From a virus (lineage: Duplodnaviria; Heunggongvirae; Uroviricota; Caudoviricetes): a stretch of 35,737 nucleotides of DNA. Below the pieces are notes generated by a model that was given only the letters and a program-made list of their open reading frames with translations, ran no database searches and was not told where the DNA came from. Below are positions 7,106-27,225 of the stretch, piece after piece. The first letter of the stretch is position 1. The number at the start of each line of letters is the position of its first letter. The stretch lies in IMG/VR virus record IMGVR_UViG_2700989400_000002; one strand, 5' to 3'. Position numbers and translations under genes: made by a program.

Positions 7106-7109
7106 AGAA

Positions 7110-7148: not shown

Positions 7149-7211
7149 TTGAACCACGAGCGCAGTTTGGTGTTAGGAAAATTATTGAAAGAAATATTAT
7201 CAGGGGGTTAA

Positions 7212-7918: not shown

Positions 7919-7991
7919 TGCGCGCAGAGCATAATTGGGTGTTTTGATAATGAAAATGCTTAACACAGTAATTTTCTAAGAGGTGATGATA

Positions 7992-9929
7992 ATGATTGCT
8001 GGAGTTTTTATAAGGAACTTTAAAACATACCAGGGGATAAATTACGTTCCTGTAAGTGATTCATCAAACTTGAGTGGTTTTCTTGGAAATAATGGCATTG
8101 GCAAAAGTTCTGTTTTAGAAGCATTGGATTGTGTATTTAATGATAGTTCATGGAACTTAAATATTGTTGTTAAGAAAAGTGGGTTAGAAAAAACAGAACC
8201 ATATATTGTCCCATTTTTTATCCTTGAACATGACTTTTTTGATAGTCTTCATCTACCATATGCACAAACATTAGATAAAATAGCTAGGACTATAACTGTT
8301 GATGACTCAACAAATCCTGCAACCAAATCGATAATAAGTGATTTTATTCATCATCGAGATAGGATTATTTCCAGAGGGGATGTGGATGGGAAGTTTTTAA
8401 TTCCTATAGGCCAAAACCATGAAGGAAAGATTTCCCTTTCTGTATTTAAGTCGAAGGTTATATCTTTCATGGATGAAAATGAGTTTGGAATCGAGTTTGA
8501 TAATTTGATTGAGTCTGAAGAGTATGTATCTTTATTTCAATCCTTATATATATACATATGTAATGCCTTGGAGTATCTTTATATACCGAAGGAGATTGAT
8601 AGCGAGTCTTTCACAAAGTTAGAAAGTATGGGGACTCAGGTACTCATGGGAGAATCCTTACATAAAATTTTGGATAGGATTGTTGGTGATAGCACTGTTT
8701 CCCAGATTAATAAAGAGTTAAATGGGTTTCTTGAAGATATATCTGGAAAGTTAATTAGTTATTCATATCGCACACCTACAGACAGACAAAAAAGGATTCA
8801 AAAGCGAGAGGTTTATAATCTTATTATAGAAGCCTTCTTCAATGTAAGAAAACTTCATAAAAATCAAGGCTCTGATTATTATCTGGAGATTAATTCTTTA
8901 AGTTCAGGTGAAAAGCAAAAAGCAATTATTGATGTTGCGCATGCTTTATTAACAAAACACCGCCAAGATGGAGGGCGTTTAATTATTGCAATTGATGAGC
9001 CTGAGTCATCACTGCATATGTCTGCGTGCTTTGAGCAATTTAATGCTCTTGCTGAATTGAGCCATAATTGCAGGCAGTTATTGTTCTCATCACATTGGTA
9101 TGGATTCTTACCTACTTTAGATTGCGGTTGCGTAACAATAATAACAAAGAAGGATTCAGAGCATAAGTTTGACTTAATTAATCTTGCTTCTTATCGCGAA
9201 GAGGTCAGGCAGTTAATAAGCTCAACTAATGGGAAAATGCCATTTGATATAAGGATAAAGAGTATCAATGATTTTATTCAGTCTATTGTAACCAGTGCTA
9301 CAGGAGATAATCCATATAACTGGATTATATGTGAGGGTACGTCTGAAAAAGTTTACTTGTCAGATTATTTCAAAGACCTTATGTGCGAAAGGAATCTTAG
9401 GATAATTCCGGTTGGTGGTGCAAAAGAGGTTAAAAGGATTTATGAGCAATTGGCTGCTTGTCATAAAGATATATCTGCGGAGTTGACTGGTGTTATTTAT
9501 TTATTATCAGATACCGATGTACAGCAAGTAAAATATCCAGTTGAGAAGTTGAAGAATATTTACTGTAAAAGAATTGTTTTCGATAAATCTGTGGGGAAAA
9601 CCGTTTTAGTAGATATAAATGGTAATCCTTCGTCACCTGCGACTGCCATAGAAGATTGTCTTAATGGGCAGGTGTTTCATCGAACTTTAATGACATATGT
9701 TTCTACTTATCCTCAGATTAGCTTTATCGCTACAGCACCAGTTAATGATTGTGATAATGAATCATTTAATTATTATGATCTTAGAACTTCTGAAAAGGAT
9801 GCTATCTTGGGTTTTTTTGCTGAGAATAATATGAAGTATGAATTTGCGCTGAAGTATAACTCTGAAAAATGCGATAGTGACTCAGTACCAGATTGGATTC
9901 AGAATGTAAAGGAAACGTTTCTGAAGTAA
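7992..9929 (+). CDS. OLD-family-like nuclease candidate: ABC-type ATPase plus C-terminal Toprim (646 aa)
   Basis: Walker A GNNGIGKS (8085..8108), signature-like LSSGEK, Walker B/D-loop LIIAIDEPESSLH (about 8980..9010), Toprim-like ICEGTSEK (E-G at 9333..9338) and LLSDTD (9510..9518); AT-rich. Start taken at ATG 7992 (RBS aagagg); the ORF track begins at GTG 7983. Confidence 0.65.
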   Translation: MIAGVFIRNFKTYQGINYVPVSDSSNLSGFLGNNGIGKSSVLEALDCVFNDSSWNLNIVVKKSGLEKTEPYIVPFFILEHDFFDSLHLPYAQTLDKIARTITVDDSTNPATKSIISDFIHHRDRIISRGDVDGKFLIPIGQNHEGKISLSVFKSKVISFMDENEFGIEFDNLIESEEYVSLFQSLYIYICNALEYLYIPKEIDSESFTKLESMGTQVLMGESLHKILDRIVGDSTVSQINKELNGFLEDISGKLISYSYRTPTDRQKRIQKREVYNLIIEAFFNVRKLHKNQGSDYYLEINSLSSGEKQKAIIDVAHALLTKHRQDGGRLIIAIDEPESSLHMSACFEQFNALAELSHNCRQLLFSSHWYGFLPTLDCGCVTIITKKDSEHKFDLINLASYREEVRQLISSTNGKMPFDIRIKSINDFIQSIVTSATGDNPYNWIICEGTSEKVYLSDYFKDLMCERNLRIIPVGGAKEVKRIYEQLAACHKDISAELTGVIYLLSDTDVQQVKYPVEKLKNIYCKRIVFDKSVGKTVLVDINGNPSSPATAIEDCLNGQVFHRTLMTYVSTYPQISFIATAPVNDCDNESFNYYDLRTSEKDAILGFFAENNMKYEFALKYNSEKCDSDSVPDWIQNVKETFLK

Positions 9930-9934
9930 GAATG

Positions 9935-9959
9935 ATAGAGGCATTATACATGCCTCTAT
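9935..9959. terminator. bidirectional hairpin between convergent cargo gene and Q (stem atagaggcat / atgcctctat)
   Basis: 10-bp perfect inverted repeat with 5-nt loop, flanked by A/T-rich sequence on both sides. Confidence 0.5.
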
Positions 9960-9967
9960 TATATATA

Positions 9968-10987
9968 CTAGAAATTATAATCTTTAAATGCCACAATATC
10001 CTGACCGAGCCAGCCGTTTATTTCCCGAATCCTGTCCTGTAGCGGGATAAGCTCATTGCGGACAAAGACCTTTGCCACTTTCTCAATATCACCCAGCGAC
10101 CCGACGTTCTCCGGCTTGCCGCCCATCAACTGAAAGGGGATGCGGTGCGCGTCCAGCAGGTCAGCGGCGCTGGCTTTTTTGATATTAAAAAAATCGTCCT
10201 TCGTTGCCACTTCACTGAGCGGGATAATTTTAATACCGTCGGCTTTCCCCTGCGGGGCATAGAGAAACAGATTTTTAAAGTTATTGCGGCCTTTCGACTT
10301 AACCATGTTTTCGCGAAGCATTTCGATATCGTTGCGATCCTGCACGGCATCGGTGACGTACATGATGTATCCGGCATGTGCGCCATTTTCGTAATACTTG
10401 CGGCGGAACAGCGTGGCCGACTCATTCAGCCAGGCAGAGTTAAGGGCGCTGAGATATTCCGGCAGGCCGTACAGCTCCTGATTAATATCAGGCTCCAGCA
10501 GGTGAAACACGGAGCCGGGCGCGAAGGCTGTCGGCTCGTTGAAGGACGGCACCCACCAGTAAACATCCTCCTCCACGCCACGGCGGGTATATTTTGCCGG
10601 TGAGGTTTCCAGTCTGATGACCTTACCGGTGGTGCTGTAACGCTTTTCCAGAAACGCATTACCGAACACCAGAAAATCCAGCACAAAGCGGCTGAAATCC
10701 TGTTGCGAAAGCCACGGATGCGGGATAAATGTCGAGGCCAGAATATTGCGTTTAACGTAAATCGGTGAGCTGTGATGCACGGCAGCACGCAGGCTTTTCG
10801 CCAGACCGGTAAAGCTGACCGGTGGCTCATACCATCTGCCGTTACTGATGCACTCGACGTAATCCAGAATGTCACGGCGGTCGAGTACCGGCACCGGCTC
10901 GCCAAAGGTGAATGCTTCCATTTTCGGGGAGCTGGCGGTCATTTTTTTTGCCGCAGGTTGCGGTGTTTTCCCTTTTTTCTTGCTCAT
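9968..10987 (-). CDS. Q: portal protein (339 aa)
   Basis: P2 gpQ-like size and position; start overlaps the P stop by 1 nt. Confidence 0.85.
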   Translation of the reverse strand: MSKKKGKTPQPAAKKMTASSPKMEAFTFGEPVPVLDRRDILDYVECISNGRWYEPPVSFTGLAKSLRAAVHHSSPIYVKRNILASTFIPHPWLSQQDFSRFVLDFLVFGNAFLEKRYSTTGKVIRLETSPAKYTRRGVEEDVYWWVPSFNEPTAFAPGSVFHLLEPDINQELYGLPEYLSALNSAWLNESATLFRRKYYENGAHAGYIMYVTDAVQDRNDIEMLRENMVKSKGRNNFKNLFLYAPQGKADGIKIIPLSEVATKDDFFNIKKASAADLLDAHRIPFQLMGGKPENVGSLGDIEKVAKVFVRNELIPLQDRIREINGWLGQDIVAFKDYNF

Positions 10988-12759
10988 CAGTAAAACTCCA
11001 GAATGGTGGATGTCAGCGGGGTGCTGATACCGGCGGTGAGTGGCTCATTTAACAGGGCGTGCATGGTCGCCCAGGCGAGGTCGGCGTGGCTGGCTTCCTC
11101 GCTGCGGCTGGCCTCATAGGTGGCGCTGCGTCCGCTGCTGGTCATGGTCTTGCGGATAGCCATAAACGAGCTGGTGATGTCGGTGGCGCTGACGTCATAT
11201 TCCAGACAGCCACGGCGGATAACGTCTTTTGCCTTGAGCACCATTGCGGTTTTCATTTCCGGTGTGTAGCGGATATCGCGCGCGGCGGGATAGAACGAGC
11301 GCACGAGCTGGAACACGCCGACACCGAGGCCGGTGGCATCAATACCGATATATTCGACGTTGTATTTTTCGGTGAGTTTGCGGATGGATTCCGCCTGAGT
11401 GGCAAAGTCCATGCCTTTCCACTGGTGACGCTCAAGTATTCTGAATTTGCCACCGGCCACCACCGGCGGTGCCAGTACCACGCATCCGGCACTGTCGCCA
11501 CGGTGTGACGGGTCGTAACCAATCCATACCGGGCGGGAGCCGAACGGATTCGCGGCAAACGGCGCATAGTCTTCCCATTCTTCCAGCGTGTCGACCATGC
11601 AGCGTTGCAGCTCCTCGAACGGGAACACCGACGCCTTGTCGTCAACAAATTCACACATGAACAGGTTTTTAAAATCGTCGGCGCTGTTTTCGCGTTTAAG
11701 CTGCTCAATGTCGAACAATGTGCAGCCGCCTTTCAGGGCGTCCTCAATGGTGACAATCTGCCGCCACTGGCCGTCCGCACAGAGAAGCCCACCGGCAAGG
11801 GCGTTATGACTGACGTCGATTTCCACGCGTTCGGCGGCGCTGGCGCGTCCCCGGTTAAACAGTTCACCGGACCAGAACGGGTAGGCGTCGTGCGCCAGCG
11901 TGGACGGGGTGGAGAAATAGGTTGAGCGCAGGTGACTCTGTGAGGCCATACCTGATGCCACCTTACGCAGCACCTGAAAATTCGGGATCCAGAAAATCTC
12001 GTCGACGTACAGGTCGCCGTTATGGCTCTGTGCGGTGTTGGAGTTGGTGCCGAGAAAAATCAGTTTTGCGCCGTTATTGCCCAGGACAATCGGGTCACCG
12101 GTCAGGTCAACGTCAACCAGCCGGGCAAAGGCGATAATGTATTCGCGGAACACATACGCCTGCGTTTTACTGGCCGACAGAAAAATCTGGTTATGACCGG
12201 TTTTCAGGGCGCGCAGCAGCGCCTCGCGGGAAAAATAAAACGTCGCGCCAATCTGGCGGGATTTCAGGATATCGCGGATGCGGTGCTCAAGCCCGGCGCG
12301 ATACCAGTGCAACTGATATTCGAAAGACTGCTCAAAGAAAATCTGCTCCAGCTTTTCGATGGCCTCGTCACTGAAAAAATTCTTTTTCGGTTTGCGACGC
12401 CCGCCTTTGTTGCGGTTAGCGACGTTCGGATTAAGGTCTGCCTCGTTGCCGGTCTGACTGTAACGGTTGACCCGTGCCAGTCGTTCAATCTGGCGTCCGA
12501 GCAGGTCAATTTCCTTGAAGTCACCGCCGGTTTTCTGCGGTTTGATGATGAGCTGGGTCAGCCGCGCTTCCAGACTCATTTCGACACGGCTGATGGGGGC
12601 AACGCTGTCCCAGCCGTCGCGCTGTTTCCAGCTCTGCACCGTCGGGCGTTTCATCTGCAACATGGCGGCAATCTGCGGCACGGAAAATCCCTGCCAGTAC
12701 AGCAGCGCCGCCTGACGACGCGGGTCGTGTAAAAGAGTGGTGTCTGTGGTGATGGTCAT
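10987..12759 (-). CDS. P: terminase large (ATPase) subunit (590 aa)
   Basis: ATG at 12759 (MTITTDTTLLHDPRRQAALLYWQGF) gives 590 aa as in P2 gpP; divergent from O. Confidence 0.85.
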   Translation of the reverse strand: MTITTDTTLLHDPRRQAALLYWQGFSVPQIAAMLQMKRPTVQSWKQRDGWDSVAPISRVEMSLEARLTQLIIKPQKTGGDFKEIDLLGRQIERLARVNRYSQTGNEADLNPNVANRNKGGRRKPKKNFFSDEAIEKLEQIFFEQSFEYQLHWYRAGLEHRIRDILKSRQIGATFYFSREALLRALKTGHNQIFLSASKTQAYVFREYIIAFARLVDVDLTGDPIVLGNNGAKLIFLGTNSNTAQSHNGDLYVDEIFWIPNFQVLRKVASGMASQSHLRSTYFSTPSTLAHDAYPFWSGELFNRGRASAAERVEIDVSHNALAGGLLCADGQWRQIVTIEDALKGGCTLFDIEQLKRENSADDFKNLFMCEFVDDKASVFPFEELQRCMVDTLEEWEDYAPFAANPFGSRPVWIGYDPSHRGDSAGCVVLAPPVVAGGKFRILERHQWKGMDFATQAESIRKLTEKYNVEYIGIDATGLGVGVFQLVRSFYPAARDIRYTPEMKTAMVLKAKDVIRRGCLEYDVSATDITSSFMAIRKTMTSSGRSATYEASRSEEASHADLAWATMHALLNEPLTAGISTPLTSTILEFY

Positions 12760-12932
12760 GAATACCTCGCCGTGATGAATACACGGCAAGGCTACTGAGT
12801 CGCGCCCCGCGATTCGCTAAGGTGCTGTTGTGTCAGTGATAAGCCATCCGGGACTGATGGCGGAGGATGCGCATCGTCGGGAAACTGATGCCGACATGTG
12901 ACTCCTCTAATCACTATTCAGGACTCCTGACA

Positions 12933-13787
12933 ATGGCAAAAAAAGTCTCAAAATTCTTTCGTATCGGCGTTGAGGGTGACACCTGTGACGGGCGTGTCAT
13001 CAGTGCGCAGGATATTCAGGAAATGGCCGAAACCTTTGACCCGCGAGTCTATGGTTGCCGCATTAACCTGGAACATCTGCGCGGCATCCTGCCTGACGGT
13101 ATTTTTAAGCGTTATGGCGATGTGGCCGAACTGAAGGCCGAAAAGATTGACGATGATTCGGCGCTGAAAGGCAAATGGGCGCTGTTTGCGAAAATCACCC
13201 CGACCGATGACCTTATCGCGATGAACAAGGCCGCGCAGAAGGTCTATACCTCAATGGAAATTCAGCCGAACTTTGCCAATACCGGCAAATGTTATCTGGT
13301 GGGTCTGGCCGTCACCGATGACCCGGCAAGCCTCGGCACGGAATACCTGGAATTCTGCCGCACGGCAAAACACAACCCTCTGAACCGCTTCAAATTAAGC
13401 CCTGAAAACCTGATTTCAGTGGCAACGCCTGTTGAGCTGGAATTTGAAGACCTGCCTGAAACCGTGTTCACAGCCCTGACCGAAAAGGTGAAATCCATTT
13501 TTGGCCGCAAACAGGCCAGCGATGACGCCCGTCTGAATGACGTGCATGAAGCGGTGACCGCTGTCGCTGAGCATGTGCAGGAAAAACTGAGCGCCACTGA
13601 GCAGCGCCTTGCTGAGATGGAAACCGCCTTTTCCGCACTTAAGCAGGATGTGACTGACAGGGCGGATGAAACCAGTCAGGCATTCACCCGCCTGAAAAAC
13701 AGTCTCGACCACACCGAAAGTCTGACCCAGCAGCGCCGCAGCAAAGCCACCGGCGGTGGCGGTGACGCCCTGATGACGAACTGCTGA
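12933..13787 (+). CDS. O: capsid scaffolding protein (284 aa)
   Basis: ATG at 12933 with RBS agga gives 284 aa as in P2 gpO. Confidence 0.85.
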   Translation: MAKKVSKFFRIGVEGDTCDGRVISAQDIQEMAETFDPRVYGCRINLEHLRGILPDGIFKRYGDVAELKAEKIDDDSALKGKWALFAKITPTDDLIAMNKAAQKVYTSMEIQPNFANTGKCYLVGLAVTDDPASLGTEYLEFCRTAKHNPLNRFKLSPENLISVATPVELEFEDLPETVFTALTEKVKSIFGRKQASDDARLNDVHEAVTAVAEHVQEKLSATEQRLAEMETAFSALKQDVTDRADETSQAFTRLKNSLDHTESLTQQRRSKATGGGGDALMTNC

Positions 13788-13845
13788 CCGGCGTCAGTCA
13801 GTCCGGGAAAACCTTCACGATTAACCCTTAATTTCAGGAAAAACT

Positions 13846-14919
13846 ATGCGCCAGGAAACCCGCTTTAAATTTAATGCCTACCTGTCCCGTGTTGCCGAAC
13901 TGAACGGCATCGACGCCGGTGATGTGTCGAAAAAATTCACCGTTGAACCGTCGGTCACCCAGACCCTGATGAACACCATGCAGGAGTCCTCTGACTTTCT
14001 GACCCGCATCAACATTGTGCCGGTCAGCGAAATGAAAGGGGAAAAAATTGGTATTGGTGTCACCGGCTCCATCGCCAGCACCACCGACACCGCCGGTGGC
14101 ACCGAGCGTCAGCCGAAGGACTTCTCGAAGCTGGCGTCAAACAAGTACGAATGCGACCAGATTAACTTCGATTTTTATATCCGCTACAAAACGCTGGACC
14201 TGTGGGCGCGTTATCAGGATTTCCAGCTCCGTATCCGTAACGCCATTATCAAACGCCAGTCCCTTGATTTCATCATGGCCGGTTTTAACGGCGTGAAGCG
14301 TGCCGAAACCTCTGACCGCAGCAGTAATCCGATGCTACAGGATGTGGCGGTCGGCTGGCTGCAGAAATACCGCAATGAAGCCCCGGCGCGCGTGATGAGC
14401 AAGGTCACTGACGAGGAAGGGCACACCACCTCTGAGGTTATCCGCGTGGGTAAGGGCGGTGATTATGCCAGCCTTGATGCACTGGTGATGGATGCGACCA
14501 ACAACCTGATTGAGCCGTGGTATCAGGAAGACCCTGACCTTGTGGTGATTGTGGGGCGTCAGCTACTGGCGGACAAGTATTTCCCCATCGTTAACAAAGA
14601 GCAGGACAACAGCGAAATGCTGGCCGCTGACGTCATCATCAGCCAGAAACGCATCGGTAACCTGCCGGCGGTACGCGTCCCGTACTTCCCGGCGGATGCG
14701 ATGCTCATCACGAAGCTGGAAAACCTGTCCATCTACTACATGGATGACAGCCATCGCCGCGTGATTGAGGAAAACCCGAAACTCGACCGCGTGGAGAACT
14801 ACGAGTCAATGAACATTGATTACGTGGTGGAAGACTACGCCGCCGGTTGCCTGGTGGAAAAAATTAAGGTCGGTGATTTCTCCACACCGGCCAGGGCGAC
14901 CGCAGAGCCGGGAGCGTAA
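13846..14919 (+). CDS. N: major capsid protein (357 aa)
   Basis: Length and position as P2 gpN. Confidence 0.9.
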   Translation: MRQETRFKFNAYLSRVAELNGIDAGDVSKKFTVEPSVTQTLMNTMQESSDFLTRINIVPVSEMKGEKIGIGVTGSIASTTDTAGGTERQPKDFSKLASNKYECDQINFDFYIRYKTLDLWARYQDFQLRIRNAIIKRQSLDFIMAGFNGVKRAETSDRSSNPMLQDVAVGWLQKYRNEAPARVMSKVTDEEGHTTSEVIRVGKGGDYASLDALVMDATNNLIEPWYQEDPDLVVIVGRQLLADKYFPIVNKEQDNSEMLAADVIISQKRIGNLPAVRVPYFPADAMLITKLENLSIYYMDDSHRRVIEENPKLDRVENYESMNIDYVVEDYAAGCLVEKIKVGDFSTPARATAEPGA

Positions 14920-14922
14920 CCG

Positions 14923-15666
14923 ATGACGAGTCCCGCACAGCGCCACATGATGCGGGTCTCGGCAGCGATGACCGCGCAGCGGGAAGCCGCCCCGCTGCGA
15001 CATGCAACTGTCTATGAGCAGATGCTGGTTAAGCTCGCCGCAGACCAGCGCACACTGAAAGCGATTTATTCAAAAGAGCTTAAGGCCGCGAAAAAGCGCG
15101 AACTGCTGCCGTTCTGGTTGCCGTGGGTGAACGGCGTGCTGGAGCAGGGCAAAGGTGCACAGGATGACATTCTGATGACGGTCATGCTGTGGCGTCTGGA
15201 TACCGGCGATATTGCCGGTGCGCTGGAGATTGCCCGTTATGCCCTGAAGTACGGTCTGACCATGCCGGGTAAACACCGCCGCACCCCGCCGTACATGTTC
15301 ACCGAGGAGGTGGCGCTCGCGGCCATGCGCGCTCACGCTGCCGGTGAGTCTGTGGATACCCGCCTGCTGACGGAGACCCTTGAACTGACCGCCACGGCTG
15401 ACATGCCTGATGAAGTGCGCGCAAAGCTGCACAAAATCACCGGTCTGTTTCTGCGTGACGGTGGTGATGCCGCCGGTGCGCTGGCACACCTGCAACGTGC
15501 GACACAGCTCGACTGTCAGGCAGGCGTCAAAAAAGAGATTGAACGACTGGAGCGGGAGCTGAAACCGAAGCCGGAGCCGCAGCCAAAAGCGGCCACCCGC
15601 GCCCCGCGTAAGACCCGGAGCGTGACACCGGCAAAACGTGGACGCCCGAAAAAGAAAGCCAGTTAA
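14923..15666 (+). CDS. M: terminase small (endonuclease) subunit (247 aa)
   Basis: Length and position as P2 gpM; basic C-terminus. Confidence 0.85.
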   Translation: MTSPAQRHMMRVSAAMTAQREAAPLRHATVYEQMLVKLAADQRTLKAIYSKELKAAKKRELLPFWLPWVNGVLEQGKGAQDDILMTVMLWRLDTGDIAGALEIARYALKYGLTMPGKHRRTPPYMFTEEVALAAMRAHAAGESVDTRLLTETLELTATADMPDEVRAKLHKITGLFLRDGGDAAGALAHLQRATQLDCQAGVKKEIERLERELKPKPEPQPKAATRAPRKTRSVTPAKRGRPKKKAS

Positions 15667-15765
15667 CAACCGAATGCGCCCCGCGCCAGGGCGGCACGCC
15701 GGTCAGTGAGGGTGAATCACCTGACACTGCACCGGCGTCCACCGCCCGACTTTTCAGAGGTAGTC

Positions 15766-16275
15766 ATGATGACGCTGATTATTCCGCGAAAGGAGGCTCC
15801 CGTGTCCGGTGAGGGTACGGTGGTCATCCCGCAACCGGCAGGCGACGAGCCGGTGATTAAAAACACGTTCTTTTTTCCCGATATCGACCCGAAGCGCGTC
15901 CGGGAACGTATGCGCCTTGAGCAGACCGTCGCCCCCGCCCGTCTGCGTGAGGCCATCAAGTCAGGCATGGCTGAAACAAATGCGGAGCTGTACGAGTACC
16001 GCGAACAGAAAATTGCCGCCGGTTTTACGCGTCTGGCGGACGTTCCGGCGGACGACATCGACGGTGAAAGCATCAAAGTTTTTTACTACGAGCGCGCTGT
16101 GTGTGCGATGGCGACCGCGTCGCTTTATGAGCGTTACCGCGGCGTGGATGCCAGTGCCAAGGGCGACAAGAAGGCCGACAGCATTGACAGCACCATTGAT
16201 GAGCTGTGGCGGGATATGCGCTGGGCGGTGGCGCGCATCCAGGACAAGCCGCGCTGCATCGTGAGTCAAATCTGA
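15766..16275 (+). CDS. L: head completion/stabilisation protein (169 aa)
   Basis: ATG at 15766 with RBS gagg gives 169 aa as in P2 gpL. Confidence 0.8.
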   Translation: MMTLIIPRKEAPVSGEGTVVIPQPAGDEPVIKNTFFFPDIDPKRVRERMRLEQTVAPARLREAIKSGMAETNAELYEYREQKIAAGFTRLADVPADDIDGESIKVFYYERAVCAMATASLYERYRGVDASAKGDKKADSIDSTIDELWRDMRWAVARIQDKPRCIVSQI

Positions 16276-16478
16276 TGAAGACCTTTGCGCTACAGGGCGA
16301 CACGCTCGACGCCATTTGTGTCCGGTATTACGGGCGCACTGAGGGCGTGGTTGAGACCGTGCTCGCCGCAAATCCGGGACTGGCTGAACTGGGTGCGGTG
16401 CTGCCACACGGCACCGCCGTCGAACTGCCCGACGTTCAGACCGCGCCCGTGGCTGAAACTGTCAATCTGTGGGAGTAA
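16275..16478 (+). CDS. X: tail protein X (67 aa, LysM-like)
   Basis: ATGA overlap with L; 67 aa as in P2 gpX. Confidence 0.8.
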   Translation: MKTFALQGDTLDAICVRYYGRTEGVVETVLAANPGLAELGAVLPHGTAVELPDVQTAPVAETVNLWE

Positions 16479-16481
16479 CGC

Positions 16482-17260: not shown

Positions 17261-17274
17261 ACGGAGTAAACACC

Positions 17275-18688: not shown

Positions 18689-19133
18689 GTTTAAGCGTTT
18701 TGAAGACCGGCTGACCGGACTTATTGAATCGCTGTCACCGTCAGGGCGTCGGCGACTGAGTGCCGAACTGGCGAAACGTCTGCGGCAGAGTCAGCAGCGT
18801 CGGGTGATGGCACAGAAAGCCCCGGACGGCACCCCCTACGTGCCACGCCAGCAGCAGAGCGCCAGAAAAAAGCCCGGTCGTGTTAAGCGAAAAATGTTTG
18901 CGAAACTTATCACCAGTCGTTTTTTGCATATCCGCGCCAGCCCGGAACAGGCATCAATGGAGTTTTACGGCGGGAAGTCACCGAAAATCGCCAGTGTGCA
19001 TCAGTTTGGTCTGTCGGAAGAAAACCGGAAAGACGGTAAGAAAATTGATTATCCGGCGCGCCCTCTGCTCGGCTTTACCGGTGAGGATGTGCAGATGATT
19101 GAAGAGATTATCCTGGCTCACCTTGAGCGTTAG
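18681..19133 (+). CDS. S: tail completion protein S (150 aa)
   Basis: Length and position as P2 gpS. Confidence 0.8.
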   Translation: MNEFKRFEDRLTGLIESLSPSGRRRLSAELAKRLRQSQQRRVMAQKAPDGTPYVPRQQQSARKKPGRVKRKMFAKLITSRFLHIRASPEQASMEFYGGKSPKIASVHQFGLSEENRKDGKKIDYPARPLLGFTGEDVQMIEEIILAHLER

Positions 19134-19162
19134 TTTTATCCAGGCAGAGGCTGATGCGCAAT

Positions 19163-19199
19163 TAAACATTGAGCGGCCATGCTGGTCGCTCAATGTTTA
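19163..19199. terminator. hairpin between convergent S and the antisense cargo gene (13-bp stem taaacattgagcg / cgctcaatgttta)
   Basis: Perfect 13-bp inverted repeat with 11-nt loop between the two convergent stops. Confidence 0.45.
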
Positions 19200-19204
19200 G
19201 AGGT

Positions 19205-19990
19205 TTATGAGTGATTTTTATTTGATGCTTTGTATTCTAAAACCTTCTTATTGGCGTAAAAGAATTTTGTATATGACAGGAATATAACCAGACCTGAAGT
19301 GAAATAGACGAGGGATAGTATTAATAATGCTTTTTTGTGACTGTTATTATCTTTAATCTCCTGGCTTAACCATTCGGAGTCCTCCTCGTTTAGCTGTAAG
19401 AGCTTATTGCAGGCGATTTCAGGAAGTGTGTCTTTTATAAATACGTTTTGCAGTCTCTTGCAATCGGCAAGGCTATAAGTTTTATTAAATTCAACTGCTT
19501 TATTTTTGAAGGATAAAAGAACTTTGTCACTATAAACATAGTACATCATGTTTTTATATGGTATGCCTATGGCATCCCTTACTATAACGGATTGTTCGTT
19601 GTGTATGTAACATGCGAGGAGAATGTAAAAAATACTGGCCAGAATTACAATTATTGTTTTAATTATGTGTGGTGGTTTTGTTATGTCACCCCAGATGCGA
19701 GTAAGGAAAAAATACGATGTTTTTAGTTTTCCATCAATCAGTCCCTGCTGTATCATTCTCACATTTTCAATGCCTGATACATTGATTCCGTTAATTATTT
19801 TAAATAGTTGAATGTCGCGCCACTCGCGGTCAAGTCTTTTTAATTTTTTGTCTGAATATCCAAAATTGAAATAATGTGCAATAAGCCTCATAAGGTTACT
19901 TTTACCAAAGCTAAAAAATGCTAATACTGCAAAGCTACAAAGGAAAAAAACGATTAGCCCCCACACATTAGTCACATTATAGCTGACCAT
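19205..19990 (-). CDS. AT-rich integral membrane protein (261 aa, about 3 TM helices), P2 orf30 slot
   Basis: Antisense to the late operons; hydrophobic segments near residues 9-28, 108-128 and 222-241; strongly AT-rich. Confidence 0.6.
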   Translation of the reverse strand: MVSYNVTNVWGLIVFFLCSFAVLAFFSFGKSNLMRLIAHYFNFGYSDKKLKRLDREWRDIQLFKIINGINVSGIENVRMIQQGLIDGKLKTSYFFLTRIWGDITKPPHIIKTIIVILASIFYILLACYIHNEQSVIVRDAIGIPYKNMMYYVYSDKVLLSFKNKAVEFNKTYSLADCKRLQNVFIKDTLPEIACNKLLQLNEEDSEWLSQEIKDNNSHKKALLILSLVYFTSGLVIFLSYTKFFYANKKVLEYKASNKNHS

Positions 19991-20073
19991 TACGCTCTCC
20001 TTGGATGTTGTCTGGTAGTTCTACAAATGAATCCAGATAGCATAACTTTTATATATTGTGCAATCTCACATGC

Positions 20074-20709
20074 ATGAACACTCTCGCAAATATTCAGGAA
20101 CTCGCGCGCGCACTGCGCAACATGATTCGCACCGGCATTATCGTCGAAACCGACCTTAACGCCGGTCGCTGCCGCGTGCAGACCGGCGGCATGTGCACCG
20201 ACTGGCTTCAGTGGCTGACCCATCGCGCAGGACGTTCGCGCACATGGTGGGCACCTTCCGTGGGGGAACAGGTGCTGATTCTGGCCGTGGGTGGTGAACT
20301 CGACACGGCGTTCGTTCTGCCGGGGATTTATTCCGGCGATAACCCCTCGCCGTCTGTGTCGGCGGATGCCCTGCATATCCGTTTCCCTGACGGGGCGGTG
20401 ATTGAATATGAACCCGAAACCAGTGCACTCACGGTAAGCGGAATTAAAACGGCCAGCGTGACGGCTTCTGATTCTGTTACTGCCACGGTGCCGGTGGTCA
20501 TGGTGAAAGCATCAACCCGCGTCACCCTGGACACCCCGGAGGTGGTCTGCACCAACAGGCTGATTACCGGCACGCTGGAAGTGCAGAAGGGCGGGACGAT
20601 GCGCGGCAACATTGAACACACCGGCGGTGAACTCTCATCAAACGGTAAGGTACTGCATACCCATAAACACCCCGGCGACAGCGGCGGCACAACCGGGAGT
20701 CCTTTATGA
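20074..20709 (+). CDS. V: baseplate spike/assembly protein V (211 aa)
   Basis: ATG at 20074 gives 211 aa as in P2 gpV; the ORF-track start is a TTG extension. Confidence 0.85.
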   Translation: MNTLANIQELARALRNMIRTGIIVETDLNAGRCRVQTGGMCTDWLQWLTHRAGRSRTWWAPSVGEQVLILAVGGELDTAFVLPGIYSGDNPSPSVSADALHIRFPDGAVIEYEPETSALTVSGIKTASVTASDSVTATVPVVMVKASTRVTLDTPEVVCTNRLITGTLEVQKGGTMRGNIEHTGGELSSNGKVLHTHKHPGDSGGTTGSPL

Positions 20710-21053
20710 CAGCGCGTTATCTCGGAATGAATCGCAGTGATGGCCTGACTGTCACTGACCTTGAGCATATCAGCCAGAGTATCGGCGATATCCTGCGCAC
20801 ACCGGTCGGCTCACGGGTGATGCGTCGTGATTACGGCTCGTTGCTGGCATCAATGATTGACCAGCCGCAGACCCCGACGCTTGAGTTGCAGATTAAGGTC
20901 GCCTGTTACATGGCGGTGCTGAAATGGGAACCCCGCGTCACCCTGTCATCCGTCACCACTGAGCGCAGTTTTGACGGGCGAATGACGGTCACGTTAACCG
21001 GCCAGCACAACGACACCGGCCAGCCACTTTCATTAACCATCCCTGTGAGTTGA
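20706..21053 (+). CDS. W: baseplate protein W (115 aa)
   Basis: Length and position as P2 gpW. Confidence 0.85.
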   Translation: MTARYLGMNRSDGLTVTDLEHISQSIGDILRTPVGSRVMRRDYGSLLASMIDQPQTPTLELQIKVACYMAVLKWEPRVTLSSVTTERSFDGRMTVTLTGQHNDTGQPLSLTIPVS

Positions 21054-21057
21054 AACC

Positions 21058-21966
21058 ATGCCGATTATCGACCTGAACCAGCTACCCGCACCGGATGTGG
21101 TCGAGGAGCTGGACTTTGAAAGCATTCTCGCTGAACGCAAGGCGACACTGATTTCCCTTTACCCGGAAGATCAGCAGGAGGCGGTCGCCCGTACCCTGAC
21201 ACTGGAATCTGAGCCTCTCGTCAAACTGCTGGAAGAAAATGCTTATCGTGAGCTTATCTGGCGTCAGCGTGTGAATGAGGCCGCACGGGCGGTGATGCTG
21301 GCCTGTGCCGCCGGTAATGACCTTGATGTGATTGGTGCCAATTACAACACCACGCGCCTGACTATCACCCCGGCAGATGATTCGACCATTCCGCCGACAC
21401 CGGCAGTGATGGAATCTGACACAGATTATCGTCTGCGTATTCAGCAGGCTTTTGAGGGCTTAAGCGTCGCCGGGTCAGTGGGAGCCTATCAGTATCATGG
21501 TCGCAGTGCTGACGGGCGTGTCGCGGATATTTCTGTCACCAGTCCGTCTCCTGCCTGTGTCACCATCTCTGTGCTGTCACGTGAAAATAACGGCGTCGCA
21601 TCCGAAGACCTGCTGGCTGTGGTGCGTAACGCCCTTAATGGCGAGGACGTCAGGCCGGTGGCCGACCGCGTGACCGTGCAGTCTGCCGCCATCGTTGAAT
21701 ACCAGATAAACGCCACGCTTTACCTTTACCCTGGTCCCGAAAGCGAACCCATCCGCGCTGCCGCTGTGAAAAAGCTGGAAGCGTATATCACGGCACAGCA
21801 CCGGCTGGGGCGCGACATCCGTCTGTCTGCCATTTATGCCGCTTTGCATGTGGAAGGTGTGCAGCGTGTCGAACTGGCTGCACCACTGGCCGACATCGTG
21901 CTCAACAGTACGCAGGCGTCTTTCTGTACCGAATACCGCGTCGTGACCGGAGGCTCGGATGAGTGA
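21058..21966 (+). CDS. J: baseplate protein J (302 aa)
   Basis: Length and position as P2 gpJ. Confidence 0.85.
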   Translation: MPIIDLNQLPAPDVVEELDFESILAERKATLISLYPEDQQEAVARTLTLESEPLVKLLEENAYRELIWRQRVNEAARAVMLACAAGNDLDVIGANYNTTRLTITPADDSTIPPTPAVMESDTDYRLRIQQAFEGLSVAGSVGAYQYHGRSADGRVADISVTSPSPACVTISVLSRENNGVASEDLLAVVRNALNGEDVRPVADRVTVQSAAIVEYQINATLYLYPGPESEPIRAAAVKKLEAYITAQHRLGRDIRLSAIYAALHVEGVQRVELAAPLADIVLNSTQASFCTEYRVVTGGSDE

Positions 21967-22489
21967 TTCGCGACTGCTGCCGACCGGCTCATCACCGCTT
22001 GAGGTCGCCGCCGCAAAAGCCTGTGCGGAAATTGAAAAAACGCCGGTCAGTATTCGTGAGCTGTGGAACCCGGACACCTGTCCGGCAAATCTGCTGCCGT
22101 GGCTGGCGTGGGCGTTTTCGGTCGACAGGTGGGATGAAAAGTGGCCGGAAGCGACAAAACGCGCCGTTATCCGCGATGCGTATTTCATCCACTGTCATAA
22201 AGGCACAATAGGTGCAATCCGGCGTGTGGTGGAGCCGCTCGGCTATCTCATCAACGTGACGGAGTGGTGGGAAAACAGTGACCCGCCCGGCACCTTCCGG
22301 CTTGATATTGGTGTACTGGAAAGCGGCATCACAGAGGCAATGTATCAGGAAATGGAACGGCTGATTGCTGATGCCAAACCTGCAAGCCGCCACCTTATTG
22401 GCCTGAACATTACCCGGGACATTCCCGGCTACCTGTTCGCCGGTGGTGTGGCTTACGACGGCGATGTAATTACGGTTTACCCCGGATAA
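21959..22489 (+). CDS. I: baseplate protein I (176 aa)
   Basis: Length and position as P2 gpI. Confidence 0.85.
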   Translation: MSDSRLLPTGSSPLEVAAAKACAEIEKTPVSIRELWNPDTCPANLLPWLAWAFSVDRWDEKWPEATKRAVIRDAYFIHCHKGTIGAIRRVVEPLGYLINVTEWWENSDPPGTFRLDIGVLESGITEAMYQEMERLIADAKPASRHLIGLNITRDIPGYLFAGGVAYDGDVITVYPG

Positions 22490-22499
22490 GTGAGGAATA

Positions 22500-24818
22500 A
22501 TGAGCACAAAATTCAGAACCGTTATCACCACTGCCGGTGCAGCAAAGCTGGCAGCGGCAACCGCACCGGGAGGGCGGAAGGTCAACATTACCACGATGGC
22601 CGTCGGGGATGGCGGTGGTAAATTGCCTGTCCCGGATGCCGGACAGACCGGGCTTATCCATGAAGTCTGGCGACATGCGCTGAACAAAATCACCCTGGAC
22701 AAACGAAACAGTAATTATATTATCGCAGAGCTGGTTATTCCGCCGGAGGTGGGCGGTTTCTGGATGCGTGAGCTTGGCCTGTACGATGATGCGGGAACGC
22801 TAATTGCCGTGGCGAACATGGCTGAAAGTTATAAACCCGCTCTTGCCGAAGGCTCAGGGCGTTCGCAGACCTGCCGCATGGTCATCATCGTCAGCAGTGT
22901 GGCCTCAGTGGAGCTGACCATTGACACCACAACGGTGATGGCAACGCAGGATTACGTTGATGACAAAATTGCAGAGCATGAACAGTCACGACGTCACCCG
23001 GACGCCTCGCTGACCGCAAAAGGTTTTACTCAGTTAAGCAGTGCAACCAACAGCGCGTCTGAAACACTGGCCGCAACGCCGAAAGCGGTAAAGGCCGCCT
23101 ATGACCTTGCTAACGGGAAATATACCGCACAGGACGCTACCACAGCGCGAAAAGGTCTTGTCCAGCTCAGTAGTGCCACCAACAGCACGTCTGAAACGCT
23201 CGCCGCAACACCAAAAGCGGTTAAGGCAGCGTATGACCTTGCTAACGGTAAATATACTGCACAGGACGCCACCACAGTGCGAAAAGGTCTTATCCAGCTC
23301 AGTAGCGTCACCAACAGCGATTCTGAAACGCTTGCGGCAACGCCAAAGGCGGTAAAGGCAGCGTATGACCTTGCTAACGGGAAATACACTGCACAGGATG
23401 CCACCACGGCGCGGAAAGGGCTTGTCCAGCTCAGTAGCGCCACCAACAGTGATTCTGAAACGCTGGCCGCAACACCAAAAGCGGTGAAGTCTGCCTATGA
23501 CAATGCTGAAAAACGTCTTCAGAAAGATCAGAACGGTGCGGATATTCCGGGAAAGGATACCTTCACGAAAAATATCGGTGCCTGTCGTGCTTATAGCGGC
23601 GCTTTGAGCACTGAAGCCGGAAACTGGACAACCGCTCAGTTTATTGAATGGCTGGATTCCCGTGGTGCATTTAATCATCCGTACTGGATGTGCAAAGGCT
23701 CCTGGTCATATGCAAATAACAAAATCATTACGGATACCGGATGTGGTGATATCCACCTGGCTGGTTGTGTCGTCGAGGTCATGGGAACTAAATCTGCAAT
23801 CACTATCCGAGTGACCACGCCGACAACATCAAGCGGTGGCGGTACAACCAGCGCACAATTCACTTACATTAATCATGGGGACGGCTACTCCCCCGGCTGG
23901 CGTCGTGACTGGAATCGTCAGGGCGACGCAATGACCGGAACGATTAATCAGGACGGTGGAAGCCAGAATGCCTATATGTCTACGGCCTTATGTTCAGGCA
24001 CAAGAGGCGGCAAAAAATATCTCAGAAAGTTTCGTGGTGGAGAAGGAGACACTATCTGGCATGAAACAGTACAGGGCGGGGTAGTTCGTTGGGCGACTGG
24101 TAATACTGATGCTCAGGAAGAATTATCACTCAGCTCCGCTTATGGTCTCCGTTCAAGAGGTGAGATTACATCACTCAGTGCTAATGGTCTGCGCATTGCT
24201 TATGGCAATTATGGATTCTTTATCAGGAATGATGGCGGCAGCACATATTTAATGCTGACGGCCTCTGGCGATAAATTTGGGACATGGAACGGCTTAAGAC
24301 CGCTGACTATCAATAACGCCAATGGCGGAGTGTCAATGGGGCATGGCCTGAGTGTTACAGGTGATATTGTCTCAAGTACCAAAGTACGTGCCGGTAGCGG
24401 GAAAAAGTTCACGGTCAGCAGCAGCAATACATCCACGAAGGAAGCCGCATTCAATTTGTGGGGAAACTCAAGTCGTCCTGTGGTGGCTGAATTAGGTGAT
24501 GATGCAGGCTGGCATTTTTACAGTCAGAGAAATACAGATAACAGCATCACTTTTGCTGTTAACGGGCAGGTATCACCATCTAACTATGGCAACTTTGATT
24601 CACGCTATGTCCGGGATATCCGGCTTGGTGGTGCTGCCACATACAAACCTGCGAACAATGGTATGACATGGACACATCAGGCACCGTCCGGGTGTGTATA
24701 TTCCGGCATTATTGTTCAGGATACCGGCTCAAACTCTGCCGATAACATTGGTGGCGTATATTACAGACCGGTGCAGAAATACATTAACGGGACTTGGTAT
24801 AACGTGGCGCAGGTATAA
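22500..24818 (+). CDS. H: tail fiber protein H (772 aa) with internal tandem repeats
   Basis: Conserved N-terminus; longer than P2 gpH (669 aa from memory); contains 132-bp in-frame tandem repeats; C-terminal half is lower in GC. Confidence 0.85.
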   Translation: MSTKFRTVITTAGAAKLAAATAPGGRKVNITTMAVGDGGGKLPVPDAGQTGLIHEVWRHALNKITLDKRNSNYIIAELVIPPEVGGFWMRELGLYDDAGTLIAVANMAESYKPALAEGSGRSQTCRMVIIVSSVASVELTIDTTTVMATQDYVDDKIAEHEQSRRHPDASLTAKGFTQLSSATNSASETLAATPKAVKAAYDLANGKYTAQDATTARKGLVQLSSATNSTSETLAATPKAVKAAYDLANGKYTAQDATTVRKGLIQLSSVTNSDSETLAATPKAVKAAYDLANGKYTAQDATTARKGLVQLSSATNSDSETLAATPKAVKSAYDNAEKRLQKDQNGADIPGKDTFTKNIGACRAYSGALSTEAGNWTTAQFIEWLDSRGAFNHPYWMCKGSWSYANNKIITDTGCGDIHLAGCVVEVMGTKSAITIRVTTPTTSSGGGTTSAQFTYINHGDGYSPGWRRDWNRQGDAMTGTINQDGGSQNAYMSTALCSGTRGGKKYLRKFRGGEGDTIWHETVQGGVVRWATGNTDAQEELSLSSAYGLRSRGEITSLSANGLRIAYGNYGFFIRNDGGSTYLMLTASGDKFGTWNGLRPLTINNANGGVSMGHGLSVTGDIVSSTKVRAGSGKKFTVSSSNTSTKEAAFNLWGNSSRPVVAELGDDAGWHFYSQRNTDNSITFAVNGQVSPSNYGNFDSRYVRDIRLGGAATYKPANNGMTWTHQAPSGCVYSGIIVQDTGSNSADNIGGVYYRPVQKYINGTWYNVAQV
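23013..23501 (+). repeat. in-frame tandem repeat inside H: about 3.6 copies of a 132-bp (44-aa) unit
   Basis: Units begin at 23031, 23163, 23295 and 23427 (partial), with a leading partial copy from 23013; they differ at a few positions. Confidence 0.85.
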
Positions 24819-24821
24819 TTT

Positions 24822-25349
24822 ATGCAGCATTTGATAAATATAACGGCAGGTAATCCAAAAACGGTTGAACAATATCAATTGACAAAAGACTTTGATGTTG
24901 TCTGGTTTTTTTCAGAAGATGGTAAGAACTGGTACGAAGAACAAAAGTATTTTGCTGATGACACGCTAAAAATAGCGTACGACAAAGATAATATCATCCG
25001 CTATGTGGAAAAGGATGTGACAGCTATCAGACCGGATGGATTAAGTGTTGTTGAAGTGGCGGATATTACTGCTAACCGACGGGCGGACATTTCAGGGAAC
25101 TGGATGTTTAAGGACGGCAAAGTGATTAAACGCATTTATACGGCAGAGGAATTGCAGCAGCAGGCAGAAAACCGGAAAGCCAGACTTCTTGCAGATGCTG
25201 AATCCGTGATTTTGCCGCTGGAGCGTGCTGTCAGACTGAACATGGCAACAGATGAGGAGCGTAGCCGACTGGAAGCATGGGAACGCTACAGCGTTCTGGT
25301 CAGTCGTGTGGATCCTGCAAATCCTGAATGGCCGGAAATGCCGCAATAA
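24822..25349 (+). CDS. G: tail fiber assembly chaperone G (175 aa)
   Basis: Length and position as P2 gpG; AT-rich. Confidence 0.8.
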
Positions 25350-25384
25350 GTTGTATGATCTCTGGAGTGAGCAAACGTATCTAT

Positions 25385-25424
25385 GGCACAGAGTTAAGCC
25401 TAATCTGACAGTACGCTCTGTGCC
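25385..25424. other. hairpin downstream of G (9-bp stem ggcacagag / ctctgtgcc, 22-nt loop)
   Basis: Inverted repeat read directly; no T-run. Confidence 0.3.
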
Positions 25425-25611
25425 AGGAGCGGATACTTTAATGTTCTATCACTATTGGATATGATTATCATGAAACTACCTTAAATTAACATCTTGCTAA
25501 AGATGCAACCAAAAGTTACCTTCAGGGAATTGTGAGCTGATAAGAAGAATAGTTGTATCTAATAAGATGTTGAGTTTTAATTAAACTCCATGCGAACAAG
25601 GAGGGCAAAAA

Positions 25612-27225
25612 ATGAGCAATTCATTTTCAATTACACTACCTACAAAAGAAAAAGACCTAGCGGAAATAGAGACTAATCAGAGCGTGCTTATTATCGGTGC
25701 GAATGGCTCTGGAAAGTCTCGCCTTGGGACATGGATGGATCTAAAATCTCCTCAAAGAAATATTGTTCATCGTATTTCCGCTCAGCGGGCTTTAGCGATG
25801 CCTGACCATACAACACCAACTTCGCTTCAACAAGCACAGAATAATTTACTCTATGGAATTGAAAATTTGGAAGGGTCGGAACTACTTTGGTATAAAGAGA
25901 ATTATCGCTGGGGAAGTAAACCTGCCATATCATCATTAAATGATTATGGTAAATTAATGGTGTATCTCTTTTCAGACAAAATTGAAGAAAACTCGAAATA
26001 TATTGAATTAGTTAAATCTTCAGAAAAAAGAATTGAACCAACGACGACTAAATTAGATAAAATTAAATATATTTGGGAAAAAACATTACCTCACCGAGAG
26101 CTTGTTTTAGGCGGTTTGACAATTCAAACACGAGCAAAAGGAAATAACGAGGCTGTCTATAACCCCTCGGAAATGAGCGACGGTGAGCGAGTTATTTTCT
26201 ATCTGATTGGGCAATGTCTTGCAGCACCCGAAAATGGAATTATTGTCATAGACGAGCCAGAAATTCATCTTCACAAATCTGTACAAGTTCCATTATGGAA
26301 GGATATAGAAAAACTCCGACCTGATTGCCTGTTTGTATATATGACTCATGATACTGATTTTGCTGCAGCACTGCATGATGCAAAGAAAATCTGGTTAAAA
26401 AGTTATGATGGTTCCAGTTGGGATTGGGAAGATGTTCCCGATGTCGAAGGCCTACCAGAAAGTTTATTAATTGAAATATTGGGTAGTAGAAAACCAATTG
26501 TTTTTGTTGAGGGGGAAAATGGAAGCTATGATGTATCCCTTTATCGTGCTGTGTTAAATAGTTATCTAGTGATACCATCTGGTTCTTGTAGTCAAGTAAT
26601 ACAAAATGTTAAAGCTCTAAGAGCCAGTGAAAAACTCCATTATATGGAAGTTTTTGGTATTATTGATAGGGATAGACGTGTTGAAAATGAAATTCAATCG
26701 CTTCTGGAATACGGTATTTATACTCTAAGCGTGGCTGAAGTCGAAAATCTCTTTTGCGTTCCGGAAGTTATAACTTTAGTTAGCGAACGATTAGTCAGGA
26801 ATCCAGATAAAGATCTACAATCAGTTAAAGATTTTGTGTTCCGTAAAATATCCTCAGAGCTGGATACTCAGATTTCACTGCGTGTGGCTGGCGAAATTAA
26901 ATTCATGCTTAATTGTTTTGATGAAAAAGCAAAAGGGGTCGATGCTCTTAGTAGAGCTCTTGAGTTGTTGACGTCACAAATTAATGTTAAAGAGCTTTAT
27001 GATGAAAGTTTATCTCTGTTTAATAATGCAGTTGAGAAACGTGATTATCTTCTTGCATTAAAACTTTATAACAGGAAAAGCCTTTCATCCCAAGTAAGTA
27101 AGCATCTGGGGCTGGCTAATGGACAGCTTGCTGAATTAGTGGTCAGGATGGCTAATAATGAAAGTGGAGAGTCAATGAGAAATGCTCTCAGACCATATTT
27201 TGGTGAGTTTTCGAGTAAAATATAG
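25612..27225 (+). CDS. ABC-type ATPase fused to Toprim/DUF4435-like domain (537 aa), Z/fun-slot cargo
   Basis: Walker A GANGSGKS (25696..25719), SDGER signature-like, Walker B/D-loop IIVIDEPEIHLH (D-E-P-E at 26251..26262), Toprim-like VFVEGENGSYD (26509..26517) and IIDRD (26665..26673); strong RBS aaggaggg; AT-rich. Confidence 0.65.
   Translation: MSNSFSITLPTKEKDLAEIETNQSVLIIGANGSGKSRLGTWMDLKSPQRNIVHRISAQRALAMPDHTTPTSLQQAQNNLLYGIENLEGSELLWYKENYRWGSKPAISSLNDYGKLMVYLFSDKIEENSKYIELVKSSEKRIEPTTTKLDKIKYIWEKTLPHRELVLGGLTIQTRAKGNNEAVYNPSEMSDGERVIFYLIGQCLAAPENGIIVIDEPEIHLHKSVQVPLWKDIEKLRPDCLFVYMTHDTDFAAALHDAKKIWLKSYDGSSWDWEDVPDVEGLPESLLIEILGSRKPIVFVEGENGSYDVSLYRAVLNSYLVIPSGSCSQVIQNVKALRASEKLHYMEVFGIIDRDRRVENEIQSLLEYGIYTLSVAEVENLFCVPEVITLVSERLVRNPDKDLQSVKDFVFRKISSELDTQISLRVAGEIKFMLNCFDEKAKGVDALSRALELLTSQINVKELYDESLSLFNNAVEKRDYLLALKLYNRKSLSSQVSKHLGLANGQLAELVVRMANNESGESMRNALRPYFGEFSSKI

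Follow-up and report, generated by a model that had tools for sequence, protein, structure and literature searches.

Two distinct ATPase-Toprim genes, a predicted merged PARIS and a putative OLD-superfamily protein, in the cargo hotspots of a P2-like prophage

Why does a single prophage carry two genes that each encode an ATPase followed by a Toprim-type segment, and is one of them a copy of the other? The question is raised by IMG/VR record IMGVR_UViG_2700989400_000002, a stretch of 35,737 nucleotides (nt) which as a whole is called the window here, and which holds a P2-like prophage whose backbone is 94–98% identical to phage P2 (blastn against NC_001895). The first of the two genes (gene 1) lies in the A-Q hotspot and the second (gene 2) between the tail genes G and FI in the Z/fun slot, both being published cargo hotspots of P2 (PMC9122126, PMC13586616). 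ABC-ATPase/Toprim systems are among the commonest defence architectures (PMC11464382), and the arrangement is not very unusual, since one of these slots is occupied in P2 by old, likewise an ATPase-Toprim gene. An initial annotation of the window had proposed that the two genes were acquired independently, possibly with different triggers, rather than by a recent duplication. Our overall reading, to which we assign a probability of roughly 0.82, is that both cargo slots of this P2-like prophage were refilled by separately acquired genes, namely a merged PARIS (gene 2) and a member of the OLD superfamily (gene 1). Coordinates of all features are summarized in Table 1.

Comparison of the two ATPase-Toprim genes

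Reading the open reading frames and the motifs in their translations bore out the architecture described in the initial annotation: both proteins begin with an ABC-type ATPase containing Walker A and a D-E-P-E Walker B, and continue into a Toprim-type segment. The length of 646 amino acids given for gene 1 had counted the stop codon and is corrected to 645, and that of gene 2, 537 amino acids, was right. The start of gene 1 was assigned to the ATG at 7992, which gives an MI.G N-terminus conserved in all homologues, agrees with RefSeq, and follows an AAGAGG ribosome-binding site 8 nt upstream; that of gene 2 is AAGGAGG. Invariance of residues was called from a 30-sequence alignment for each gene's family. 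Gene 1 has the signature L303-SSGEKQ and the H-loop H368 (K38, S304-G306, D335/E336 and H368 invariant), the Toprim motifs E448-G-T-S-E452, P473-V-G-G476 and D507-T-D509, and a further invariant lysine, K615. Gene 2 has the signature M188-SDGER and the H-loop H246 (K35, S189-G191, D214/E215 and H246 invariant), followed by E300-G301, P322-S-G-S325 and D352-R-D354. Thus, P-x-G-[GS] and D-x-D are present and family-invariant in both genes, as had been noted, whereas the E-G-x-x-[ED] motif ascribed to both holds for gene 1 (EGTSE) and not for gene 2, which reads E-G-E-N-G and has acidic residues at +2 and +7 (D307) instead of +4. From the Walker A Lys to the Walker B Asp, gene 1 spans 297 residues and gene 2 spans 179, near the previously estimated values of about 300 and 200.

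The two proteins differ clearly from each other, again in line with the earlier description, as BLASTP aligned the Walker B block only (12/30 identities, E 0.005). Profile-profile comparison of the two families by hhalign gave an alignment of 188 columns (E 4.3e-4, 34% probability), in which signature, Walker B, H-loop, E-G, P.G and D.D follow one another in an order common to both. When the domains were tested apart against a reversed-sequence control, the C-lobe of the ATPase scored above the control (41.2 vs 16.8) and the Toprim halves did not (17.6 vs 16.6), and a direct claim of homology between the two Toprim segments was dropped on this basis. The shared architecture is real, being established via the separate links of each protein to known families. 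Neither gene is a degraded copy, since gene 1 has 645 amino acids vs about 640–646 in its family, gene 2 has 537 vs about 538, and both retain all family-invariant catalytic residues. The two genes belong to different branches of the ABC-ATPase/Toprim (OLD-like) superfamily, a stand-alone clade for gene 1 and merged PARIS for gene 2.

Family assignment of gene 2 and gene 1

Gene 2 was matched almost end to end by the PADLOC AriAB model PDLC02982 (E 1.9e-187, 622 bits; residues 3–534 of 537 vs model positions 25–568 of 570), and also by the PADLOC AriB model (E 9.2e-18). Pfam detected DUF4435 (PF14491) at residues 293–426 with 74.1 bits (cut-off 27) and AAA_21 with 40.8 bits (cut-off 27), and both halves of the predicted fold resemble the solved structures of AriA and AriB. 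The invariant acidic Toprim residues E300, D307, D352, D354 and E376/E378 occur in the same order as AriB E26, D30, D88, E90 and E122, with spacing that differs, so that the mapping is one of order only. These results classify gene 2 as a single-polypeptide PARIS, i.e. a predicted merged AriA-AriB of OLD-like class 4, a form consistent with the fusion of AriA and AriB into one gene reported in two clades (PMC11464382; also PMC9122126). It is a lone single gene and, like many PARIS systems, resides on a mobile element.

In two-gene PARIS, AriA senses Ocr-like phage anti-restriction triggers and frees AriB, which then dimerises, cuts host tRNA-Lys, halts translation and aborts infection (PMC11464382). 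The characterised system of E. coli B185, carried by a P4 satellite, consists of two proteins and needs the release of AriB from an AriA hexamer, whereas gene 2 is one chain; in addition, gene 2 occupies the P2 Z/fun slot and not the P4 hotspot. Because the AriA and AriB parts are covalently joined in the fused protein, no free nuclease could be released, and activation would instead have to come from a change of conformation or oligomeric state. The release-of-AriB model is therefore not literally applicable, and the compact merged AriAB gene could be used to test PARIS activation in one-chain form. How the fused form is switched on is a question general to merged AriAB and not specific to this window.

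Regarding gene 1, Pfam gave AAA_15 (61 bits, cut-off 32.1) and AAA_21 (48 bits), both above cut-off, for its N-terminal part. Sequence and profile searches of the Protein Data Bank with both proteins returned ATPase-motif matches alone and missed OLD, GajA and AriB, so that comparison of folds was needed. The AlphaFold model of gene 1 had a pLDDT of 77.9, with the beta-alpha pattern of the Toprim core at pLDDT 80–92. Its top Foldseek matches were the OLD effector of retron-Eco8 (9lpa_B, 9.4e-13) and GajA (8u7i_A, 2.4e-12); the matches to OLD proteins were full-length (586–711 aligned columns), and PtuA, Rad50 and SMC heads ranked behind them. By hhalign, gene 1 was also aligned with P2 Old over 218 columns, from the signature motif through E-G to the Gly motif of the Toprim domain (72% probability, E 3.4e-5), and the OLD-like_TOPRIM family PF20469 matched 28/30 members of the gene-1 family at E<=0.001. 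The OLD protein of Burkholderia pseudomallei (BpOLD) has a two-metal acidic set and a catalytic lysine, K562. Gene 1 residues E448/E452, D507/D509, T551/E554 and K615 resemble in order and spacing BpOLD E400/E404, D455/D457, T506/E508 and K562, a mapping by spacing only. Gene 1 is accordingly predicted to combine an ABC ATPase that has all its catalytic motifs and a long helical insertion with an OLD-type two-metal Toprim and a C-terminal helical domain.

Its family is narrow. Among 1.84 billion representatives, the gene-1 family profile retrieved 785 proteins at E<=0.001 and 295 at E<=1e-30, nearly all of them 625–670 amino acids long or fragments; since the matches are few and uniform in length, the family is discrete. 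It falls into about 300 clusters at 50% identity from Proteobacteria, Bacteroidota, Cyanobacteria and spirochaetes. None of the PADLOC, NCBIfam or Pfam models names it, and NCBIfam showed no family-level match for gene 1 or gene 2. The PADLOC GajA models scored gene 1 at <=25 bits and P2 Old at 75–108 bits. Its sequence and model together point to gene 1 being a divergent stand-alone member of the OLD superfamily, distant from P2 Old. By the context-based classification of OLD proteins it is a single-gene (Class 1-type) protein; at the level of the family it does not match Class 1, being outside the Class 1 length and weak on the Old model.

Comparison with characterised systems gave a corresponding picture. 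As in P2 Old and the Class 1 OLD proteins of T. scotoductus and V. cholerae, gene 1 is a single gene without helicase or reverse transcriptase, has an N-terminal ABC ATPase with a helical insert and a C-terminal Toprim with E-x3-E, Gly and DxD, and lies in the same A-Q cargo region as old. It differs from them in its length (645 amino acids vs the 500–600 used for Class 1; PMC12392090), in a family profile that does not merge with canonical OLD or GajA, in the type I restriction-modification (R-M) genes that neighbour some of its homologues, and in its placement: gene 1 follows cos on its right side, which puts it leftmost in the genome as packaged, and is on the strand opposite to that of P2 old, which the P2 annotation places left of cos. 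GajA (Class 2) and the retron-Eco8 effector (Class 3) share the ATPase-Toprim order and provide the best full-length fold matches, whereas no GajB-type helicase, reverse transcriptase or retron non-coding RNA was present beside gene 1 or its homologues. With regard to AbiL (AbiLi/AbiLii), RloA/RloB and PDC-M38, the N-terminal half of gene 1 matched AbiLi (E 1.7e-12) and PDC-M38A, its C-terminal half weakly matched PDC-M38B and AbiLii (E 1e-2 to 1e-5 for the Toprim half), and one member of the gene-1 family matched Pfam RloB; however, these systems have two genes each in place of one polypeptide, and the matches were all weak.

The genomic contexts of the family were also surveyed. Homologues with 54–62% identity occupy the same slot in Serratia and Salmonella prophages of the P2 type, where they too converge on the portal gene; the variant from Salmonella is present on >200 contigs. 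Others are found in chromosomal islands beside toxin-antitoxin pairs, AbiTii or PLD-family genes, and in Pseudomonas fluorescens a homologue (X) is placed within hsdM-hsdS-X-hsdR and overlaps hsdR. In a census of 71 species-representative loci from Proteobacteria, Bacteroidota, Cyanobacteria and Treponema, the sole neighbours found in more than two loci were type I R-M subunits (HsdM 7, HsdS 7, HsdR 5), in both Pseudomonas and Bacteroidales (loci L012 1242–10030, L021/L022, L064, L067, L070, L077 and L079). No helicase, reverse transcriptase or other fixed partner was seen in these 71 loci and seven inspected contexts; within the window there was no reverse transcriptase gene, and Rfam detected no retron RNA, CyaR being the single match. 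The type I R-M neighbours suggest that gene 1 homologues may act as a back-up to restriction. A bolder proposal would be that the gene-1 family is an unrecognised OLD-like single-chain lineage which backs up type I R-M by firing when a phage disables restriction, so that this prophage, together with its merged PARIS, would hold two mechanistically different anti-restriction traps; we consider this tentative and would sooner bet against it. As a family of about 640 amino acids that has no name and sits in the P2 old slot of several enterobacterial genera, these ATPase-Toprim proteins are a catalogue candidate once tested.

Distribution of the genes and rival explanations

The distribution of both genes was determined in 5426 complete E. 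coli genomes: gene 1 was present in 3, gene 2 in 6, and both in 2. Over two queried regions, the window was matched at 100% by chromosomal prophages from environmental isolates of E. coli, and as both double carriers showed this 100% match at the same chromosomal site, they represent one event. Strain TB06052 carries gene 1 (99.7%) with a different gene of 479 amino acids at G-FI, and in strain 09-00049, where gene 2 is present (99.7%), the A-Q slot holds a PDC-S06/AAA_13 gene. Two details of these strains were recorded besides. In the TB06052 prophage (L006 23288–24327) most of the head/lysis region has been lost, a terminase fragment running straight to S, and the sheath gene is frameshifted, with gene 1 intact. 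The A-Q gene of 09-00049, a sister prophage at the same chromosomal site as the window's, encodes a 738-amino-acid AAA_13 protein (L007 2802–5018) that matches the PADLOC candidate PDC-S06 (E 1e-254), with weaker similarity to PrrC.

These data agree with the earlier proposal of independent acquisition and argue against duplication: similarity is limited to ATPase motifs between two intact proteins of different branches; low-GC islands replace the P2 cargo, with 33–42% GC in both (33–35% at 8001–10000 in island 1, 37–42% in island 2) vs 52–60% in the backbone; the slots assort independently in TB06052 and 09-00049; and close relatives of each gene reside in other elements. Elements carrying close relatives of either gene comprise Salmonella and Serratia P2-like prophages, chromosomal islands, type I R-M operons and a CP4-like island, and those of gene 2 (88–91% identity) lie in an E. 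coli CP4-like island and in Proteus and Enterobacter chromosomes. In GenBank phage records, gene 1 was not found, and for gene 2 there was just one 28%-identical AriAB-like gene, in an Oenococcus phage. Neither RefSeq accession was mentioned in any paper found. The sequences thus support that the two genes are related in a deep sense, distinct, and separately acquired. In the P2 layout, the fun(Z) slot is held by a predicted single-chain PARIS (gene 2). Gene 1, which is immediately to the right of cos in the tin/old slot and faces Q in convergent orientation, would provide an ATP-regulated nuclease that is expressed from the prophage and excludes other phages, in the manner of P2 Old, whose gene is in that slot in P2. 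Two cassette exchanges at independent hotspots would have produced this arrangement, with just an ancient common ancestry between the genes. Their presence in one prophage neatly illustrates natural cassette exchange at two independent P2 hotspots, a phenomenon already described.

Several observations weigh against this reading. For gene 2, the family has diverged, and its profile fails to reach E. coli B185 AriB by sequence. For gene 1, the PADLOC Old model gave 41.7 bits vs 712 for P2 Old, PF20469 on residues 444–491 gave 22.5 bits vs a cut-off of 23.2, the AlphaFold model is of low confidence at residues 254–300, and the TM-scores of the Foldseek matches are low (0.27–0.35), because the domain orientations differ. 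Upstream of both genes, the promoter scan remained at background and gave no convincing sigma-70 promoter; expression of both genes in the lysogen is thus an assumption. In the literature searched, neither merged AriAB nor the gene-1 family was found to have been tested by experiment.

Could the two genes instead be paralogues that arose by duplication within the phage lineage, one having diverged or degraded? They do share the domain order, the D-E-P-E Walker B and motifs that are colinear in hhalign. However, the similarity is confined to generic ABC motifs, with Toprim halves no better than the reversed control; each gene has hundreds of full-length relatives across phyla at 35–70% identity and is far more similar to these than to the other gene; both keep all their family-invariant residues; and they occur separately in other prophages. 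This explanation retains next to no probability and is already effectively refuted. A selected, cooperating pair, linked by synergy, cross-regulation or mixed oligomers, is unlikely as well, if less decidedly so. Both genes are present in 2/3 of the complete E. coli genomes carrying gene 1, ATPases of this superfamily oligomerise, and both families are linked to anti-restriction or restriction contexts; but the two co-occurrences match the window at 100% at the same site and count as one event, each gene is found without the other in related prophages at that site, and hetero-oligomers are not plausible given how far the ATPase domains have diverged. Moreover, systems in more than one hotspot are in any case present in about 10% of the P2 phages that carry defence genes, and no evidence of functional coupling between gene 1 and gene 2 was seen.

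It could also be asked whether gene 1 is a defence nuclease at all, or an SMC/RecF-like ATPase serving the DNA metabolism or packaging of the phage itself. Its N-terminal matches to SMC_N and RecF, the fold matches to Rad50 and SMC heads, and its location adjoining cos, Q and P, between cos and the portal/terminase genes, would fit such a role. On the other hand, the gene is absent from P2 and from nearly all P2-like prophages, only 3 of the 2153 E. coli genomes with any match to the flank-spanning query carrying it; it lies in a low-GC island; it has homologues in non-phage chromosomal islands and type I R-M operons; and the acidic set of its Toprim is invariant. A housekeeping role of this kind is therefore very improbable, and separately acquired merged PARIS and OLD-superfamily genes remain the reading that we prefer.

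Prophage backbone, cargo islands and further features

The backbone consists of three blocks aligned by blastn to P2: 476–6667 to P2 24355–30539 (94.5% identity), 9999–23225 to P2 233–13459 (98.2%) and 27286–34231 to P2 17433–24382 (96.5%). At the second island, P2 homology stops at 25433 (P2 15357) and restarts at 27286 (P2 17433).

Table 1. Coordinates of the two genes, their domains and other features in the window
Feature	Position	Strand	Description and basis
Gene 1	7992..9929	+	645-aa (amino acid) putative stand-alone ABC-ATPase + OLD-like Toprim; RefSeq WP_000560120, annotated 'AAA family ATPase'
Gene 1 Walker A, G32-NNGIGKS-S40 (K38)	8085..8111	+	Translation; invariant in family alignment
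Gene 1 Walker B, I331-E338 (D335-E336-P-E338)	8982..9005	+	Aligns with Walker B of gene 2 and P2 Old
Gene 1 Toprim core, residues 443-555	9318..9656	+	Family-invariant E448, E452, G475/G476, D507, D509, T551, E554
Gene 2	25612..27225	+	537-aa predicted merged PARIS (AriA-AriB fusion); RefSeq WP_000071451, annotated 'DUF4435 domain-containing protein'
Gene 2 Walker A, G29-ANGSGKS, G29-S36 (K35)	25696..25719	+	Translation; invariant in family
Gene 2 Walker B, I210-E217 (D214-E215-P-E217)	26239..26262	+	Translation, BLASTP, family alignment
Gene 2 DUF4435/Toprim, residues 293-426	26488..26889	+	Family-invariant E300, D307, G324, D352, D354, E376, E378
Cargo island 1	6668..9998		No P2 homology; A-Q hotspot; stands where P2 has tin/old, cos, tQ
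Cargo island 2	25434..27285		No P2 homology; replaces P2 fun(Z) at G-FI hotspot
attL core, TAAAAAATAAGCCCGTGTAAGGGAGATT	476..503		Identical to P2 attP core, 28 nt; both prophage ends aligned with P2 attP
attR core, 28-nt P2 att core	34204..34231		Alignment with P2 attP
cos site, P2-type, GGCGAGGCGGGGAAAGCAC	7900..7918	+	Exact P2 19-mer found
174-aa open reading frame, island 1, left of cos	7212..7736	+	Strong terminator-like hairpin follows at 7745-7768
Palindrome ATAGAGGCAT-GTATA-ATGCCTCTAT	9935..9959		Perfect 10-bp stem; between stop codons of convergent gene 1 and Q
Q (portal), right backbone flank of island 1	9968..10987	-	RefSeq annotation; 98% identical to P2
G (tail fibre assembly), left backbone flank of island 2	24822..25349	+	RefSeq annotation; P2 blastn
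FI (tail sheath), right backbone flank of island 2	27501..28691	+	RefSeq annotation; P2 blastn
Terminator-like hairpin upstream of FI	27377-27397		In P2-homologous spacer

Island 1 holds two further features. The 174-aa open reading frame, located where P2 has old/tin, had no Pfam or PADLOC match, and was rejected as a conserved partner of gene 1 since four other contexts with gene-1 relatives contained no neighbouring homologue of it; it may represent an additional cargo gene. The palindrome between gene 1 and Q lies in non-P2 DNA at the position of the P2 tQ terminator and is probably a bidirectional terminator. A third cargo region was considered at the low-GC stretch 19205–20376 and was ruled out, as this is P2's own orf30 inside a 98%-identical block. 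In the window, orf30 occupies 19205–19990 on the minus strand between S and V, with 37% GC, and the stretch showed no Pfam or PADLOC match and no recognisable domain.

At the right end of the prophage, the attR core overlaps the 3' end of the CyaR/RyeE small RNA gene (34208–34293, minus strand; Rfam 100.7 bits), showing that the end of this small RNA gene serves as the integration site. The integrase of the window (583–1596) is intact, and that of the prophage in E. coli MB07081, which is 100% identical to the window across the two queried regions, is split by an IS3 insertion (L001 11622–13897). The tail-fibre gene H (22500–24818, 772 amino acids) contains 3.5 tandem units of 132 nt (44 amino acids) at 23046–23501 with 87% identity, and every copy aligns to one stretch of P2 H (13252–13459), which explains most of the extra length compared to P2 H.

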